IMG/VR virus record: IMGVR_UViG_2547132272_000016 | Location: 1 to 10,257 of that record | From: a virus | Taxonomy: Duplodnaviria > Heunggongvirae > Uroviricota > Caudoviricetes | Strand: one strand, 5' to 3' | DNA: 10,257 bases | Shown: piece after piece, positions 1,073-10,257 of the stretch | Position numbering within the stretch: the stretch's first letter is position 1 | Layout of the letters: each line of letters begins with the position of its first letter | The notes under the pieces: model-generated | Told to the model about the DNA's origin: nothing | Database searches by the model: none | The model's input: only the letters and a program-made list of their open reading frames with translations | Translations under genes and position numbers: made by a program

Positions 1073-1184
1073 TTTACGGGATTTTTAAATCCCGCTTTCG
1101 CCTGTTTTGTGCGCACTTCATGTTTTATGGCGCGTTTTTTGCTCATTTACGGGATTTGTGAATCCCGTTTCTGTCTGTTTTTTG
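1073..1184. repeat. Two ~39-bp direct repeats 73 bp apart, each with an 18-bp palindrome (CGGGATTT-nn-AAATCCCG); candidate parC-like centromere/operator or replication-origin element
   Basis: Repeat 1 (1073-1111, palindrome 1077-1094) lies in the 76-bp gap between the A stop and the parM start, overlapping the likely parM promoter. Repeat 2 (1146-1184, palindrome 1150-1167) lies inside the last codons of gene A. About 80% identity between the copies. Confidence 0.45.
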
Positions 1185-3925
1185 TTTCCACTGGTCAGGC
1201 CACCCCGCAGCAGGTCTGCTTTGCGGTGGGCGCGTTCAGTGGTTTCACTGATTCTTTGTGCATGCTCTGCGTCACGGATGGCGCGCAGCATGTCAGAAAG
1301 CACGGTAACGGGTGTTTTCATGGTGTTCTGGTCTTGCTGAAGTGTGGATGCCAGGCGTGCGGCGGCTTCGGGGTCTGATGCCCCCAGCTGTTCCAGATAG
1401 CTGGCGACCGGGTTATGACGGATCTCCGTGCTGCTTACGCCGTGATTGCGGCTCAGGCGCTGCCAGAGCTGCGTGATTCGGCTGTCCGGGCGGGTATCCG
1501 GTTTGCGTACAATTTCAAATCCCTGCGGTGCAATGATGCTGCCGTCAACGTACAGGCTGCCGCCCCGTAACAGGTGCTGCATCTGCTGTTCACCGATATG
1601 CAGGCCGAGAGATTCGGCAGACTCCCGCCATTCTTTAGCGAGTAATTCGTGGTTATCAGGCAAAGGCCGCTGCTGTTTGCGGCTCTGTGTCCAGCTCTGC
1701 ATTTCATCACTGCTGTTTTTTGCCTGTTTGTCACGCAGCGAACGCATCAGCGCCCGGCGTTCGTGCCGTTTCAGTGAGCGCATCCATTCGTTCACTTCAA
1801 CGCCGTCAGGGAGCTGCGGCCACGGTGCTGGCCGTTCTTCCGGCTGTTCTGTCCCGTTGTTGTCCGTTTCCTGTACACGGGGACAGTTATTGCCACGAGT
1901 CCAAGGGGCGGCAGGGCCGCCCTGAAGGTCAAAACCATTTTCGCGGGCGCTGTCTTCCGCTTCCGGTTTGCGTCTTACCAGCTTCCAGTTATCCGGATGC
2001 GTGCATACGCGGGAAGACTCCCCAATGAGCGGCGACCAGATCCCGTAAATCTGTACGCTCTGTTCACCGTAATCGTTCAGCTCATCTGCGAGGTCGTAGG
2101 CGGTGCGAATCAGGTAGTCCTTGCGTGGAACAAGCACGCCACCCTGTTTTTCAATGTAGGTGGCAAAACACCCGGCATCGGCGGCAGCGAGTACCGCATC
2201 CATTGCATCATCTTTCAGCCGTTGCGGGCCTTCCGGATTGCGTGCCATCTGGCTGGCAAGGCGGCGCAGTTCACGCCACACCTGACGGGAGGGGATACCA
2301 AAGAACTGGAACTGACGGACCCGGTGAAGGCGCGCCCAGCCGATGGCGCGCTCCACGCTCTCGGCCATTGATTTTCCGGTTTCGTGGTCAACGCGTGGCT
2401 TGCCCGTTTTCGGGTCGATGCCATCCACGGCGCGGCTGTCCAGGTTCTTTCCGATGTAGGTAGCGATGTAGCTGGTTGGTGTGCCTTTTGAGCCGTCGAC
2501 ATACTCCGCCTTAAAGCGCGGAGTAATATCATTGCCCAGCTCGTGGCGGTCCTCCTGAATGGCAATATCGCAGACGTGGGACACGATGGTTTCAATCTCG
2601 TCCGGATGTGCAAAGACCATCATATGCCAGTGCACGGTGCCGTCATGGTGAGGCTCCACCGTGCGGATGCCATACCAGCGCAGGCCGTCGCGGTTCAGTT
2701 TTTTGCGGACCGCCGCAAAAAACGTGTTAACCAGGTAATCGCTGGAGTCGCGCATGGTGGCCCCGTTCCATTTGGGGTTCGGATGACCGTTCTCCGTTGT
2801 TGCGTGGTATTTTGACGGGCAGGTGACGGTCAGAAACACCGCTCTGTCGCCACGGGCTTCGGCCAGAAGTTCCAGTCCCTTCATGGTGGCCATCATTTCT
2901 GCCTTACGGTGAACCGGGTTACTTACTCCCGCGTAATACACCGTCTCGAGATCAATCGTGAACCCGTCTTCATTTTCCAGCATGAAACTTTTCAGGAAAT
3001 CGCGTGTTTTCTCGCGCTGTGCGCGAAACTCGCTTAACGCATCCTGGCTCAGATAGGGTGATGTTTTTCTGGAAACCAGACAGGCGGCGCGGAGTTGTTC
3101 TTCTCTCCACTCGCAACGTAACAGCCACAGTTTGCGTTTCCACCAGTCCGCACAGGTCAGGCGGAGGATTGCGCCCGGTAACAGTTCCGTATTCGGATCG
3201 CTCTTGTTCAGGGCTTCGTAATGTGGCGGCATGATGTGCAGGCATAATGCGATACGGGCTAGCATCCGGTAAGCCTTCAACATTACATCCATGGTCAGCT
3301 CGCCATCTCTGGCACCAAAGCCATCGCAGAGTGTTTCAAAGGTGCTGCTGAACATCGCCGCCGTCATGGTGGCCAGCGTCTGTATCTGGTGCTTGTTGAG
3401 CTGCGGCAGGTAAAGCAAATCGTCCAGGCGTTCTCGCCCGGCAAGGGAGCGATAACCCGGTGTCAGCCAGCGTCCGTCAGTGCGATCCAGACGTTCGAAT
3501 ATTTTGCGCAGGGTTCCGCGTGCATAGCGTTCCGCCTGCCAGCTCTTTTTGCCTTTCTGGCGATCGGCTTCCTGTTTTTTGCGCAGGAAGGAGAGGTGGC
3601 GAATAAGCGGATCGCGCAGATAGGATGGCAGCAGGCGCAGCGAGGCCATGGCTTCATCCACCGCGCCGCGTGCCTGTTTTCTGGCTTCTCTGGCCAGTGT
3701 GATGGTTTTGTCCTGTTTTTCCTGTGCGTCCAGGCTTTTATTAATCAGGTTGCCCAGCGGTGTGGCGGAGAACGCCGCATCAGCCATTTCCTGGCGGCGT
3801 TCGTTCTCTGCCCGGTAGGCATCCAGCCAGGAGGAAAGTGCGGATTCAGGTGCGGGGATCTCCGTTCCTTCACGTCCTACTGCGTGGCGCGGTTGTTGCC
3901 AGTCCCTGATGTACTCTGTCGTCAT
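1118..3925 (-). CDS. A: P2 gpA-family rolling-circle replication initiator (HUH endonuclease)
   Basis: 935-aa ORF with an HUH motif (VHWHMMVF) followed by a paired-tyrosine YxxxY motif (TSYIATYIGK), the arrangement recalled for P2 gpA and phiX174 gpA. Sits as the last large gene of the early operon, as in P2. An R/E/Q-rich C-terminal ~300 aa makes it longer than P2 gpA (761 aa). Confidence 0.85.
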   Translation of the reverse strand: MTTEYIRDWQQPRHAVGREGTEIPAPESALSSWLDAYRAENERRQEMADAAFSATPLGNLINKSLDAQEKQDKTITLAREARKQARGAVDEAMASLRLLPSYLRDPLIRHLSFLRKKQEADRQKGKKSWQAERYARGTLRKIFERLDRTDGRWLTPGYRSLAGRERLDDLLYLPQLNKHQIQTLATMTAAMFSSTFETLCDGFGARDGELTMDVMLKAYRMLARIALCLHIMPPHYEALNKSDPNTELLPGAILRLTCADWWKRKLWLLRCEWREEQLRAACLVSRKTSPYLSQDALSEFRAQREKTRDFLKSFMLENEDGFTIDLETVYYAGVSNPVHRKAEMMATMKGLELLAEARGDRAVFLTVTCPSKYHATTENGHPNPKWNGATMRDSSDYLVNTFFAAVRKKLNRDGLRWYGIRTVEPHHDGTVHWHMMVFAHPDEIETIVSHVCDIAIQEDRHELGNDITPRFKAEYVDGSKGTPTSYIATYIGKNLDSRAVDGIDPKTGKPRVDHETGKSMAESVERAIGWARLHRVRQFQFFGIPSRQVWRELRRLASQMARNPEGPQRLKDDAMDAVLAAADAGCFATYIEKQGGVLVPRKDYLIRTAYDLADELNDYGEQSVQIYGIWSPLIGESSRVCTHPDNWKLVRRKPEAEDSARENGFDLQGGPAAPWTRGNNCPRVQETDNNGTEQPEERPAPWPQLPDGVEVNEWMRSLKRHERRALMRSLRDKQAKNSSDEMQSWTQSRKQQRPLPDNHELLAKEWRESAESLGLHIGEQQMQHLLRGGSLYVDGSIIAPQGFEIVRKPDTRPDSRITQLWQRLSRNHGVSSTEIRHNPVASYLEQLGASDPEAAARLASTLQQDQNTMKTPVTVLSDMLRAIRDAEHAQRISETTERAHRKADLLRGGLTSGNKKQTETGFTNPVNEQKTRHKT

Positions 3926-3931
3926 ACTGAT

Positions 3932-4297
3932 TTACTTCGTCATGCCATTCAGAGTGTCACGGCAAACGGCAGCCAGCCGCTGAATCTCCAGCACAGTGTC
4001 TTCTGTGTCGGCATGGTGGTGTGTGATGCGGATACTGTCGGCAATCACATCGACGATCGCAGAGGATGGGCGCTGGTAAATGCCAATAACGGACGGGGTG
4101 CCGCCTTCAATGCGGTAAAGCCTGTAATTTCCCTCGTGGCTGTCAATCATGTAGCGACCATCAATAACAATCTTTCCGTCAGCGAGCTGCGGTACAGGCA
4201 GGGATTTCAGGTACATGTCATAACGGTCACGCACGCGAACGGCAAGATCACGCTCTGTGTTGAGCAGGTATTCAAGAAAGTCGTTGGCGAGAATCAT
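3932..4297 (-). CDS. Hypothetical early-operon protein (121 aa)
   Basis: C-terminal 121 codons of the 326-aa track ORF. Internal ATG at 4297 has an AAGAGGA Shine-Dalgarno 8 nt upstream and protein-like composition from there on; the stop lies 6 nt before the gene A start. The upstream 205 codons are S/T/P-rich and look non-coding. Confidence 0.55.
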   Translation of the reverse strand: MILANDFLEYLLNTERDLAVRVRDRYDMYLKSLPVPQLADGKIVIDGRYMIDSHEGNYRLYRIEGGTPSVIGIYQRPSSAIVDVIADSIRITHHHADTEDTVLEIQRLAAVCRDTLNGMTK

Positions 4298-4370
4298 TGC
4301 GGCAATCCTCTTTACTACAGATGTGCGAAGGCCTCCCGCCGCAAGGTGCAGGAAAGGCCCGGAACAGGAA

Positions 4371-4601
4371 TTAATGGAGTTTGTTTTGCTGCTGGATGAG
4401 ATCCTGAAGAGACAGGAGGTCTTCCGCCAGATAGCTGAATACAGCGGCGCAGTAGTCGGCTGAAATAGTGCTGTTGAGTCTGTGCAATGTGTTGGATTGC
4501 ATGATAAAGGCGATGTGTGCAGCGCGGGTGAGTCTGCGGTCGATTTCAGTCTGGATGTGACGACGCTCTGCGATAGCGCGGTGCTGTTTGCGGTTTGCCA
4601 T
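4371..4601 (-). CDS. Hypothetical small basic protein (76 aa)
   Basis: ATG with AAGAGG Shine-Dalgarno 8 nt upstream; charged N-terminus (MANRKQHRAIAERRH..). No family recognised. Confidence 0.55.
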   Translation of the reverse strand: MANRKQHRAIAERRHIQTEIDRRLTRAAHIAFIMQSNTLHRLNSTISADYCAAVFSYLAEDLLSLQDLIQQQNKLH

Positions 4602-4692
4602 GGTGTGGCCTCTTTGGTTGTAAGTTTTGAAAACTCACCATCCAGAGGTGGAAAACTCGGGGTGGTGAGACGTACAGGGTTTCCACAACCGG

Positions 4693-4716
4693 CAACCAAA
4701 GAACCCGGCCCGACCG
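4693..4716 (-). other. Stable hairpin with a UUCG tetraloop on the transcribed (-) strand, in a 322-bp non-coding gap
   Basis: Minus-strand RNA GGGGCCGAC-UUCG-GUCGGGCCGGG followed by UUCUUUGGUUG. Could be an attenuator, processing site or terminator. Confidence 0.3.
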
Positions 4717-4778
4717 AAGTCGGCCCCATACGCCCCACCATAATTCGTGTGCGAAAAAGACGTGGCGATACGGTACGC

Positions 4779-4801
4779 ACAAAAAAACCGCTGGCGCGGT
4801 T
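4779..4801 (-). terminator. Candidate rho-independent terminator or attenuator on the - strand
   Basis: Minus strand reads ACCGC-GCCA-GCGGT followed by TTTTTTTGTG, about 125 nt downstream of the 99-aa gene stop. The stem is short (4-5 bp), so this is weak. Confidence 0.3.
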
Positions 4802-4923
4802 GTGCGCTTTGGTTGTCAGCGGGGTGGAAATCCCGGCACCCGTTTTATGAGGTGCAGCGGAAATGTAACCTGACTGATTGCGGCATGGCAAGCGGTTTTT
4901 TTGTGTGTGCATGTTCTGGTTTC

Positions 4924-7117: not shown

Positions 7118-7182
7118 CCACCGCCCGCAGTCTTGAAGGGGCTGTAAAGGGCGCGTGTTTAACCAACCACAAAGGAGTTGTT

Positions 7183-7650
7183 ATGGAATTAGATGCTTTT
7201 GTGTGTCTGCGAATTTTTGAAAAACACTGCGAGCGAGTTGCTGAATCCTATCGTGATGTGCTGGATAAAGAAACAGCCAACTCAGCATTTGTTGCTACTC
7301 GAGCATTAATTCTCCTTAAATTGGATTTGCTACTTGTCGAGTATCGAAGAAATATTGATTCCAAGTGTGTAGTCCTCTTCGGAAAAAATGTGCTTTATCA
7401 TTATCTTTTCACCCAAAAGGGTGTTTCATTGTCTGATGCCAAAAATATGTGTCTCCATGACATACTTATTGTTCTCTGGAATGATATTAATGCATATGTA
7501 ATACCAGAGCATGTATCCGAGCGTATCCAGATTCTTTATAAGCACGAGCTCTCATCTCCAATGCCTGATTTAAGTTATGAAGATGAAAGTCTGTTGCACT
7601 TTAAGGATTCTGCTTGGGATTTTTATCCTGCCGATACACGACTGAATTAA
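7183..7650 (+). CDS. Accessory protein of unknown function (155 aa), opposite strand to the early operon, low GC
   Basis: ATG at 7183 with AAGGAG Shine-Dalgarno 6 nt upstream (the track ORF extends upstream only via a TTG). AT-rich codon usage unlike the flanking phage genes. Its 3' end overlaps the convergent 202-aa gene by about 47 nt. Confidence 0.6.
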   Translation: MELDAFVCLRIFEKHCERVAESYRDVLDKETANSAFVATRALILLKLDLLLVEYRRNIDSKCVVLFGKNVLYHYLFTQKGVSLSDAKNMCLHDILIVLWNDINAYVIPEHVSERIQILYKHELSSPMPDLSYEDESLLHFKDSAWDFYPADTRLN

Positions 7651-8209
7651 GAAACTCATTGTTTCTATCTATTTCAGCCTGGTAGGCCTCTAACTCATGC
7701 CGTAATTGTTGTTGTCTTAGTGGTAACCTGTTGCGGCATTTCAATTCTGCTACAACGGTTTCCAAAAAATTTATCAGTTCTTCATCAGTGTATGAGCCAG
7801 CATAAATGTACGGTTTAGTGTTAGCGCATGTACAGTCTGCTGTTTCTTTAATGAGCATTGATTCGTCATCCATAATCTGTCGATAAAGTTCAAATGCTTC
7901 TTCGGCAGGAAACCTGAGCATGACGCCGCATACTGGTTCTAAAACCAATCCGAACGTTCCCTTTGCGTTATCCCGACAAAAATGGCCGTATTCATCGTCG
8001 GGATGCAGGGTGGCATCTTTCAAATCTTCGCCATTCTGAAGCTTTGATTTAAATGCCATCAGGTCAGCGAACGTTCTGTGTAATTCGTGGTAGTCAATGC
8101 TGATTTCAACCTGTGGTTTGCCCGGAAAAACCAGCAAAAGCTTCTGGTGTGGTTTTTCGTTTTTCAGGGTTTCCAGTCGTTCCAGTAGCGCTTTATTTTT
8201 GTGATTCAT
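7601..8209 (-). CDS. Hypothetical protein (202 aa), second gene of the leftward early transcript, low GC
   Basis: ATG with AAGAGG Shine-Dalgarno about 10 nt upstream. No family recognised. Its 3' end overlaps the + strand 155-aa gene. Confidence 0.6.
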   Translation of the reverse strand: MNHKNKALLERLETLKNEKPHQKLLLVFPGKPQVEISIDYHELHRTFADLMAFKSKLQNGEDLKDATLHPDDEYGHFCRDNAKGTFGLVLEPVCGVMLRFPAEEAFELYRQIMDDESMLIKETADCTCANTKPYIYAGSYTDEELINFLETVVAELKCRNRLPLRQQQLRHELEAYQAEIDRNNEFLNSVVYRQDKNPKQNP

Positions 8210-8313
8210 TCTACTGTTACCTCTTTTAACTCATTCAGGCAGTGTGATATAGCCCACTAACTGCCCGTGTTTGAAATAACGGCGACGAAAATAATGTGTT
8301 AACAATAAAGCAA

Positions 8314-8739
8314 TCATGCGGCCCTCGCTTTTTTAGTTCTGCTTCGTTTGCTATGTGTCGGCTTAAATAAAAACAGGCGGTTTTCCCAGTCATGCCATTC
8401 CTGCGGAGCGTTTTCGATCAAGCGATCACATGCTTCATCCCACGCTTTTCTGTTGATGTAGAGTTCAGCGTTTCCTCCTGGCCTAAGAGGGTCTGTCATA
8501 TACACGGCTGGCAATTTCCCTGCTTTAGCCATGCTCACAATGGCGCTAACTGTTTTGCCGATATACAGCGCAAATCCTTCTTTTGACAGGAGATGCGAGG
8601 GATTTTCTGAAAGTCGAATTTCTTCACGTTCACGTGCTTTGCGTTCTGTTTTTTGATGCTCCCCTTCTGGCATTTCTGACAGGCGATCGCATCGTGTTCC
8701 GCAAAGTGACTCAGGCGCGTTTTGAGTGCTTTCTTGCAT
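8314..8739 (-). CDS. cox: Cox/Apl-like HTH regulator (excisionase/early-operon repressor type), unusually long
   Basis: First gene leftward of the switch region, the position of P2 cox and 186 apl. Central HTH-like segment GFALYIGKTVSAIVSMAKAGKLPAVYMTDP resembles what I recall of P2 Cox. Start placed at ATG 8739 (GGAGG Shine-Dalgarno 7 nt upstream) rather than the track's GTG at 8778. At 141 aa versus ~90 for P2 Cox it has a charged N-terminal extension; it could alternatively be a CII-type regulator. Confidence 0.55.
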   Translation of the reverse strand: MQESTQNAPESLCGTRCDRLSEMPEGEHQKTERKAREREEIRLSENPSHLLSKEGFALYIGKTVSAIVSMAKAGKLPAVYMTDPLRPGGNAELYINRKAWDEACDRLIENAPQEWHDWENRLFLFKPTHSKRSRTKKARAA

Positions 8740-8812
8740 CTGATATCCTCCGCCATTGGTGCTCTTTCTAATTGGCACTAGTTGGAACCACTTAGAACAT
8801 TTGTTTGCTGTT

Positions 8813-8840
8813 CATATGTGGTGTTAATCTACACATATGT
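8813..8840. promoter_or_regulatory. Candidate repressor operator: CATATGTG-N11-CACATATG (also two direct CATATGT copies 20 bp apart)
   Basis: The two half-sites flank the proposed -10 of the leftward early promoter, analogous to P2 C operators flanking the Pe -10 and 186 CI operators at pR. Confidence 0.4.
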
Positions 8841-8853
8841 AGGAGTTTGTCAA
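8826..8853 (-). promoter_or_regulatory. Candidate early lytic promoter (Pe-like), transcribing leftward toward cox
   Basis: Perfect -35 TTGACA on the - strand (8853-8848), 16-nt spacer, -10 TAGATT (8831-8826). The -35 abuts the C start codon, so the early transcript would be antisense to the C 5' end. Confidence 0.4.
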
Positions 8854-9147
8854 ATGGACATTCCTCAAAAAATTCGCGTCATGCGCAAATCTGAAGATCT
8901 CACTCAGCGGGAATTCGCTGATATGATTGGAATTTCTTATTCTGCTCTGACCAGTTATGAGTATGGTCGTAACCTTCCTGGCCTCGAGATCACTATCAAG
9001 CTTTTCAAGCACCCGAGATTTTCTAAATACCGCGACTGGTTTCTGTTTGATGAAGTTGAACCCAAGGCCGGGCAGGTTGTACCGGCTCTCGCACACATTG
9101 GGCAAGGCGAAGCGGAATCATCCCGCTCCGGCAAGAAAACTGGTTAA
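8854..9147 (+). CDS. C: P2 C-type immunity repressor
   Basis: Start at internal ATG 8854 with AGGAG Shine-Dalgarno 8 nt upstream. The 97-aa product matches recalled P2 C features: KIRVMRKSEDLTQREFADMIGISYSALTSYEYGR and the C-terminal PALAHIGQ...SGKKTG. Lies immediately upstream of int on the same strand, as in P2. Confidence 0.85.
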   Translation: MDIPQKIRVMRKSEDLTQREFADMIGISYSALTSYEYGRNLPGLEITIKLFKHPRFSKYRDWFLFDEVEPKAGQVVPALAHIGQGEAESSRSGKKTG

Positions 9148-9213
9148 CGGTTCACCAGGCATTTATTTCCCAGAGCTGTGATCAAGATGATGTTTTCATT
9201 GGAGGGCTTCCTT

Positions 9214-10209
9214 ATGTCGATTAAGAAGCTCGCTAATGGCAAATTTTGTGTGGACGTGCGGCCTGCTGGATCAGAAGGAAAGAGATTCAGGCGGCGATTT
9301 GATACTCGTGGTGAGGCTGTTTTGTATGAGCGTCATGTATTGCAGCATTACCACGACAAAGACTGGGTTGATAAGCCAACAGAACGGCGCTCGCTGAGGG
9401 AGTTGCTGGATTGTTGGTGGCTATACCATGGGAAAAACCATCCTTACGGTGCGATGGAGCGAGTGCGTATTTCTGCGGTCATTAGTGATCTTGAAAGTAT
9501 TAATGTTACACGCAGTGACCAACTTACTCGTAAGAACATAATTAATTATCGGTTATTGTTGCTTAACCGCGGAATAAAACAATCCACGGTTAATCGTTAT
9601 TGCGCAATGATGAGTGGTTTCTTCACAAAACTAATTGACGCAGAGGAATATTCTGGGGTTAATCCGTTTCATGATGTGAAAAAACTTAATATCAAACAGC
9701 CTGAAATGGCTTATTTGTATCATGAAGATATTCCACGATTACTGGAGTTGTTATCTGGTGATGAATTAAAAGCCGTCTTGTTGTGTCTGGCAACAGGTGG
9801 AAGATGGAGTGAAGTTGCAAATATCAAGGGGGAGCATGTTATTAGCGGCAAAGTCATTTTTATGGAAACAAAAAATGGGAAGCGTCGCGTTATACCTATA
9901 TCGTCAGAACTGGAGTGCATGATTAAGACTAAGGCTACTGGTCGTTTAATTTATCCGAGTTATGCCGCTGTCAGAACGGCTATCAGAAAAGTGAGGCCCG
10001 ATCTTCCTGAAGGGCAGTCGATACATGTTTTACGGCATACCTTTGCCACTCACTTCATGATTAATGGCGGGAATATCATCACTTTGCAGAGAATACTTGG
10101 GCATAGCACTATTCAGCAGACGATGACTTATGCCCATTTTGCACCGGATTATCTGCAGGATGCTGTGCGCTTTAATCCTGTGGCTGAGTTGTCCAGATAT
10201 TGCCCATAA
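9214..10209 (+). CDS. int: P2-type tyrosine integrase
   Basis: Start at ATG 9214 (MSIKKLANGKF..., compare P2 Int MAIKKL...) with GGAGGG Shine-Dalgarno 7 nt upstream; the track's GTG at 9178 is probably an over-extension. C-terminal catalytic region HVLRHTFATHFMINGGNIITLQRILGHSTIQQTMTYAHFAP carries the conserved R, H-x-x-R and catalytic Y of tyrosine recombinases. Confidence 0.92.
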   Translation: MSIKKLANGKFCVDVRPAGSEGKRFRRRFDTRGEAVLYERHVLQHYHDKDWVDKPTERRSLRELLDCWWLYHGKNHPYGAMERVRISAVISDLESINVTRSDQLTRKNIINYRLLLLNRGIKQSTVNRYCAMMSGFFTKLIDAEEYSGVNPFHDVKKLNIKQPEMAYLYHEDIPRLLELLSGDELKAVLLCLATGGRWSEVANIKGEHVISGKVIFMETKNGKRRVIPISSELECMIKTKATGRLIYPSYAAVRTAIRKVRPDLPEGQSIHVLRHTFATHFMINGGNIITLQRILGHSTIQQTMTYAHFAPDYLQDAVRFNPVAELSRYCP

Positions 10210-10257
10210 AATAGGACTAAATAAGCCTTGAACCGCCCCGGGAATCCTGGAGACTAA

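Follow-up and report, generated by a model that had tools for sequence, protein, structure and literature searches.

The minus-strand gene at positions 8314-8739 of the window, by which we mean the whole 10,257-nucleotide stretch analysed here, is an ordinary, correctly annotated cox gene of a known subgroup in a known phage genus, and in that respect it is already known. Its product is best explained as a P88-like Cox switch and excision protein of the long subgroup that is made from ATG 8739, a reading to which we give a probability of about 0.85. The coding sequence consists of 141 codons and a TGA stop (8314-8316). Its start codon is settled although some database entries use a 119-aa call, and a candidate operator for the long-Cox subgroup is now defined.

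By its sequence, the window represents the early part of a P2-family prophage of the P88-like type. The Escherichia phage P88 (Peduoviridae, Xuanwuvirus) matches the whole window with 92% identity over 84% of the window length, and the gene order int, C, cox, DUF4761 ... replication endonuclease, ParM is common to the window, P88 and E. coli prophages. Related prophages adjoin ppa/ytfQ in E. coli UPEC132 and UMNF18. The plus strand encodes a C-type immunity repressor of 97 aa (8854..9147; Pfam HTH_3, E=3e-9; phrog_147, E=6.5e-32; 'C protein' in P88) and, 3' of the repressor gene, a P2-type tyrosine integrase (9214..10209), annotated as a 996-nt 'phage integrase' in UPEC132, UMNF18 and P88. On the minus strand, family scans identified small early genes (DUF4761, phrog_3800, DUF4754, a MarR-type winged helix-turn-helix and an Ead/Ea22-like protein) as well as ParM (82-1041). 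The minus-strand 935-aa ORF at 1118-3925 has relatives annotated as replication endonuclease in P88 and RefSeq; its equivalence to P2 gpA is our own analogy and should be taken as putative. We considered a satellite or defective element, given int, C, cox, gpA and ParM and no structural genes in the window, and rejected it because the window corresponds to the early part of P88, which is a complete phage; the structural genes are missing because they sit beyond the window edge.

The first-pass annotation had described an open reading frame at 8314-8778 on the minus strand that encodes a Cox-like regulator about 50 residues longer than the canonical form, with a helix-turn-helix-like core in the middle of the protein. 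The frame is present in the ORF listing, and the rest of this description holds: the protein has 141 residues against 91 in P2 Cox, and Pfam Phage_Cox (PF10743) matches residues 53-133 of the 154-aa GTG-initiated ORF over profile positions 1-86 of 87 with 97.1 bits (cutoff 27.5; E=5.2e-28). PHROGs, which sets the 121-position phrog_1831 apart from the 90-position classic Cox family, returned this 'long Cox' profile with E=4e-53 and the classic phrog_272 ('Cox-like excisionase and repressor') with 3e-9. Scans of NCBIfam and of PADLOC (defence systems) gave no meaningful match for the Cox protein. A 141-aa RefSeq homolog, WP_001158283.1, is annotated 'Cox family DNA-binding protein'. The suggestion of a CII-type protein is not supported, since no CII family appeared in Pfam at E<=0.1 and no CII-like structure occurred among the fold matches, with P2 Cox the sole close fold.

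Structure prediction, which had been proposed as a check, points to the same family. In a sequence search of the PDB, P2 Cox (4LHF) was the only significant match (E=1e-6). An AlphaFold2 (AF2) model of Cox built on 37 homologs retrieved, with Foldseek, 4LHF as the only match below E=1e-3 (probability 1.00; TM 0.69 on the target). The modelled core and C-terminal helices span residues 41-124 (8368..8619, minus strand), mostly at pLDDT >90, and contain strands at 50-52, 78-82 and 91-96 and helices at 53-60, 64-72, 97-110, 113-116 and 118-124. This beta-alpha-alpha-beta-loop-beta-alpha-alpha topology reproduces the order of P2 Cox, described as beta1-alpha1-T-alpha2-beta2-L-beta3-alpha3-alpha4 (PMC3936717). 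M70, P77 and W118 do not vary and correspond in the alignment to P2 M31, P38 and W81, which have been assigned to oligomerisation (PMC3936717). The model portrays the window protein as a winged helix-turn-helix protein with a long wing loop and two C-terminal helices, which mediate oligomerisation in P2 Cox.

Translation of this protein initiates at ATG 8739. A Shine-Dalgarno sequence, GGAGG, can be read 7 nt 5' of this codon (8747..8751, minus strand), and the resulting protein starts MQESTQNAPESL.... The initiation region, G(G)AG[GA]ATA[GT]CA[AG](A)-ATG, is kept at the DNA level in 17/17 related loci, drawn from Escherichia, Yersinia, Serratia, Pectobacterium, Erwinia, Rahnella, Scandinavium and Pseudescherichia. 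In these loci an in-frame stop usually precedes the conserved ATG by one or two codons, and in five of them (L006, L007, L009, L011 and L016) this ATG is the sole start codon available. The spacer between C and cox further supports ATG 8739, because its 114 nt fall inside the range of 88-125 nt given for the cI-apl/cox spacers of 186-type regions by Nilsson et al. (PMC3448106); the other two starts would leave 75 or 177 nt.

Both competing starts were rejected. GTG 8778 has no Shine-Dalgarno sequence and falls within the repeat array described below, and P88 and UMNF18 carry a 1-bp indel and an in-frame TAG between GTG and ATG and nevertheless encode the same protein. ATG 8676, the equivalent of which is used for the 119-aa calls in some database entries (P0008, P0010), likewise lacks a Shine-Dalgarno sequence, and its Met is missing in P0009, P0011 and every other genus; it is not kept even by homologs as close as 76-79% identity. 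We also discarded an overlapping alternative-frame ORF at 8535-8756, whose ATG reads ATA in P88. The first-pass annotation had listed the three start candidates and their Shine-Dalgarno status accurately; what did not stand is the ambiguity itself, which resolves to a coding sequence of 8314-8739 instead of 8314-8778, and the shorter internal start that it had named as a possible refutation is contradicted by the loci compared here.

Compared with P2 Cox (91 aa), the 141-aa protein is longer by about 37 residues at its N-terminal end and by about 13 at its C-terminal end. The N-terminal extension (residues 1-40; 8620..8739, minus strand) is predicted to be disordered: AF2 gives residues 1-35 a pLDDT <50 and no secondary structure. 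Its distal part is acidic and its core-proximal part basic, with a net charge of -4 over residues 1-28, and five K/R and four D/E in residues 29-40. Across 124 homologs this arrangement recurs, with median net charges of -4.5 for the distal part and +3 for the ten core-proximal residues, while the stretch ahead of the conserved SKEGFA motif is 11 to 85 residues long. Between related loci, the ratios of substitutions at codon positions 1:2:3 show no bias in the extension (9:8:10, 13:8:11, 10:10:10, 11:11:11), and those in the core (for example 4:3:30 and 6:1:44) indicate that it is under strong purifying selection. The window is near-identical to E. coli prophages in the extension; a DNA-level constraint is not supported as the cause because more distant pairs diverge freely, and this near-identity is best read as a mosaic recombination boundary.

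Taken by itself, the neutral-looking substitution pattern of the extension would also fit non-coding DNA, and together with the 119-aa database calls it would favour a protein that begins near the conserved domain, the upstream sequence being a 5' leader with regulatory DNA. We regard such an untranslated leader as very unlikely, given that the Shine-Dalgarno sequence and ATG persist in every locus, including the five with no other start, and that the Met of ATG 8676 is so poorly conserved. The extension frame is moreover open in 13/13 sequence-distinct lineages (product of the per-lineage shuffle probabilities, 3e-10), Salmonella variants contain in-frame insertions of about 30-40 residues, and the acidic-then-basic composition is kept, which together argue that the extension is translated. 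Still less probable is a fusion, in which a second functional domain at the N-terminus (a metal-binding or redox module built on Cys, or else a lysogeny activator of the CII type) would be joined to Cox. Its attraction lies in C13 and C17, a CxxxC pair that the window protein shares with the E. coli relatives nearest to it; however, at least two Cys occur in the extension of only 9/124 homologs, so that we rejected a zinc or redox CxxxC motif, and the unconstrained sequence and the low-confidence, structureless AF2 prediction speak against a folded domain. The extension residues moreover found no family match in Pfam, PHROGs, NCBIfam or PADLOC, and the CII-like version in particular has no CII family match. 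Where the first-pass annotation proposed a charged, Cys-containing extension and a 'fused or extended' regulator, the charge, both cysteines and the extended form are thus borne out, but the Cys pair is not conserved and the fusion finds no backing. The extension is an intrinsically disordered region that is selected for its bulk properties, not for its sequence, and most likely both tails tune the protein rather than bring a new activity. A likeness of the Yersinia and Serratia forms (MxDEAKTI) to a ClpX 'N-motif', as in lambda O (TNTAKI), was dismissed as too loose and is absent from the window protein.

The switch region between the repressor and cox genes contains one predicted early lytic promoter (the Pe equivalent; TTGACA, 16 nt, TAGATT; 8826..8853, minus strand). 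In a consensus scan it is the sole sigma-70-like site in 8200-9200 and matches at 10/12 positions, and its -35 hexamer directly adjoins the start codon of the divergently oriented repressor gene. A repeat search revealed two copies of CATATGT(G) around the Pe -10, 21 bp apart, which also form an 8-bp inverted repeat (8813..8840). These may be the operator of the C-type repressor; in P2, the operators of the immunity repressor overlie the lytic promoter (PMC7498355).

Between the predicted Pe and the Shine-Dalgarno sequence and start of cox lie three abutting 10-bp direct repeats, TTCTAAGTGG / TTCCAACTAG / TGCCAATTAG, with the consensus YKCTAANTRG (8768..8797, minus strand). Two or three such repeats were found by inspection at the same place in the switch regions of 13 lineages, so that the array is conserved across genera. 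We then scanned each 6-12 kb locus on both strands for tandem sites with a leave-one-out position matrix, including two loci that were never in the training set; the best tandem site lay 45-59 nt 5' of the cox ATG in 10/14 loci, and the site ranked 2-6 in the others. Known Cox/Apl operators have the same architecture, in which direct repeats spaced by one helical turn lie between two promoters that face each other (PMC7498355). All these loci conserve the Cox core together with its predicted recognition helix, whereas the repressor genes and upstream switch sequence differ between the window and P88, and the repeats are therefore best read as candidate cox boxes of the long subgroup, placed over the expected lysogenic promoter Pc. 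The consensus scan of 8200-9200 did not pick up Pc, and by eye we could discern only weak hexamers (TTGGCA, 15 nt, TAGAAC).

These elements suggest a scheme modelled on P2. The cox gene would open the early lytic operon, driven by a strong promoter whose -35 hexamer adjoins the start codon of the divergent C-repressor/integrase operon. Like its homolog P2 Cox, the protein would polymerise head-to-tail on direct repeats one helical turn apart, with the three 10-bp boxes as its likely targets, and Cox bound there would shut off the opposing lysogenic promoter, leaving the phage committed to lytic growth. Together with integrase and IHF, Cox would also act as an excision directionality factor. 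The acidic tail might reduce the spread of filaments or non-specific binding to DNA, and the Ala-Ala at the C-terminus might make Cox short-lived; the last of these points is speculation.

The excision role is the part of this scheme for which a different reading has to be weighed, namely that Cox is a Cro-like switch repressor only, and excision needs another protein or none. A shared 8-mer search and a tandem scan with the position matrix over the P88 attP and the UPEC132 att regions gave weak matches only, and no clear box array lies beside int/attP in P88, UPEC132 or the window, the last of which ends 48 nt past int. Against this stands a weak, three-unit periodic resemblance, TCTTAAGTGG GCTTATTTAG TCCTATTTTA, just 3' of int in P88, as well as the result that no other RDF-like family was found among the early genes scanned. 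The characterised Cox/Apl proteins of P2, WPhi and 186 all carry both roles (PMC3936717, PMC7498355, PMC3448106). We consider a repressor-only Cox unlikely, although clearly less so than either alternative for the extension, and we retain the dual switch and excision protein, with the excisionase role of long Cox drawn from homology.

The C-terminal tail (residues 125-141; 8317..8367, minus strand) is basic, with a net charge of +7, and ends in Ala-Ala-COOH. This end occurs in 98/117 long-Cox homologs, over 62 distinct tails that differ in length and sequence; the homologs without it mostly end in SA, VA, TA or AT. In the loci compared (L001-L017), the terminal alanines (8317-8322 in the window) are specified by varied Ala codons, the stop codons after them differ and the DNA further 3' is unrelated, which argues for selection on the protein. 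As far as could be found, the conserved Ala-Ala end has not been noted earlier. The ssrA-type ClpX degron has a C-terminal Ala-Ala carboxylate at its core, and the conserved end of long Cox suggests an ssrA-like degron. Lambda Xis is held unstable by host proteases.

We tentatively extend this to both tails, which could form a regulatory module of long Cox: an ssrA-like degron read by ClpXP or another AAA+ protease, and a fast-evolving acidic N-terminal tail that serves as an intramolecular DNA mimic and limits non-specific spreading of the Cox filament. A phage ClpX-zinc-finger protein could modulate the proteolysis, and Cox dosage would be set post-translationally. This proposal is doubtful, if somewhat less so than a repressor-only Cox. 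If true, tails that control stability or filament growth would give the P2-type genetic switch a further, post-translational level of control, and the dosage of Cox set in this way would in turn set the decisions between lysis and lysogeny and on excision. To our knowledge, structural and biochemical work on Cox/Apl proteins has all been done on short forms (P2, WPhi, 186). Our literature search found no experimental work on any long Cox form, and the P88 paper is silent on cox.

Several neighbouring features of the window deserve a separate description. Directly 3' of cox lies an AT-rich (37-40% GC), convergent two-gene cassette (7180-7650, plus strand; 7601-8209, minus strand), which is absent in P88, UPEC132 and UMNF18. 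One of its genes encodes an ECs1072-family phage-associated protein (NF033230, 1.6e-32); for its 202-aa protein no match was obtained in Pfam, PHROGs, NCBIfam or PADLOC. In E. coli E300010 this cassette sits in the same slot beside a different, 175-aa Cox-family gene, and it therefore moves as a moron; it may be defence or exclusion cargo.

Further along the early region, Rfam detected a C4 antisense RNA (RF01695, 80.5 bits; 4658-4745) and, in tandem with it, the Hfq-binding RNA isrK (RF01394, 64.3 bits; 4781-4855), both on the minus strand. They lie just 5' of a 76-aa gene (4371-4601; phrog_3688), the P88 counterpart of which carries the annotation 'derepression protein', and the arrangement looks like a P1/P7-style antisense-RNA-controlled antirepressor module in a P2-family phage. 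P2 itself is classically non-inducible. P88 was isolated through mitomycin C induction (P88 paper). A 326-aa ORF at 3932-4912 (minus strand) was rejected as an artefact, its N-terminal two thirds crossing the C4 and isrK RNA genes; the true gene is its C-terminal part (121 aa; 3932-4297, minus strand; phrog_3237, E=2e-54), the P88 and UPEC132 counterparts of which are annotated with 366 nt.

At the left end, a ParM/ParR-type plasmid segregation pair comes after the replication endonuclease, within an integrating P2-family phage, and the genus therefore has both integration functions and a partition system of the actin-like kind. UPEC132 retains parM as no more than a 165-nt remnant beside a Phd/Doc toxin-antitoxin pair. 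P88-like phages also have a 'ClpX C4-type zinc finger protein' annotated just past parM/parR, beyond the window edge (1319-1651 in locus L002; 10195-10527 in P88, locus L003). A free ClpX N-domain-like protein might disturb ClpX adaptor or substrate recognition. At the right end, the match to P88 and UPEC132 runs about 20 nt past the int stop (through ...AAATAGGACTAAATAAGCC) and then diverges fully (TTGAACCGCCCCGGGAATCCTGGAGACTAA, 10229-10257), and in UPEC132 the phage-like sequence goes on for about 130 nt. The divergence represents either a different att arm or integration site, or a rearrangement; a search for a tRNA as integration target at this end found none.

The long form of Cox recurs among sequenced Peduoviridae, including P88, pro147, pro483, P24A7b, D8, 11W and several Yersinia phages. 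It is mislabelled 'ribosomal protein S15P/S13E' (COG0184) in KR073660/KR073661 (pro147, pro483), LR595885 and LR595887. More distant Cox-family clusters have even longer acidic N-terminal tails, in proteins of 161-180 aa and, in E. coli E300010, of 175 aa. With 25 clusters at E<=1e-3 in a library of 1.84 billion cluster representatives, this is a small family. In Nilsson et al. 2011 (PMC3448106), Cox/Apl proteins are divided into four groups, group 2 being larger than the P2-like group 1 and predicted to have a winged helix-turn-helix, and the phage table includes PhiECA29 of Pectobacterium atrosepticum SCRI1043. Our homolog P0089 comes from strain SCRI1043, a correspondence known at the strain level; from this, from the presence of PhiECA29 in that table and from protein size, we infer that the window Cox belongs to group 2.

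Comparison with known systems places the window protein closest to P88 gp03, with which it shares 89% identity over all 141 residues, the same start context, the extension and the neighbours, the handful of substitutions falling mostly in the C-terminal tail. The window prophage differs from P88 in having a different C repressor and operator set and the extra AT-rich two-gene cassette 3' of cox. P2 Cox (91 aa, 4LHF) shares the PF10743 domain, with its winged helix and two C-terminal helices, the leading position in the early operon, in divergent orientation to C and int, and a direct-repeat array between the lytic promoter and the gene start. However, identity in the structural alignment is only about 29%, the window protein does not keep P2 R51 (wing loop) or W84 at the aligned positions, the P2 cox box TTAAAG/CNCA differs from the candidate consensus of the window, and P2 Cox lacks the Ala-Ala end. 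Apl of phage 186 (87 aa) has the same combined logic of switch regulator and RDF, the same position between face-to-face promoters and repeats 10-11 bp apart, but it belongs to another sequence subgroup (186 type), works with a CI/CII partner system and has no long terminal tails; no cII-like gene comes after cox in the window, where the next conserved gene is DUF4761. Lambda Xis resembles the window protein as a winged-helix RDF with head-to-tail filaments on direct repeats and an unstructured tail, yet it is not a switch repressor, shows no detectable sequence similarity and has its disordered tail at the C-terminus, where it binds Int.
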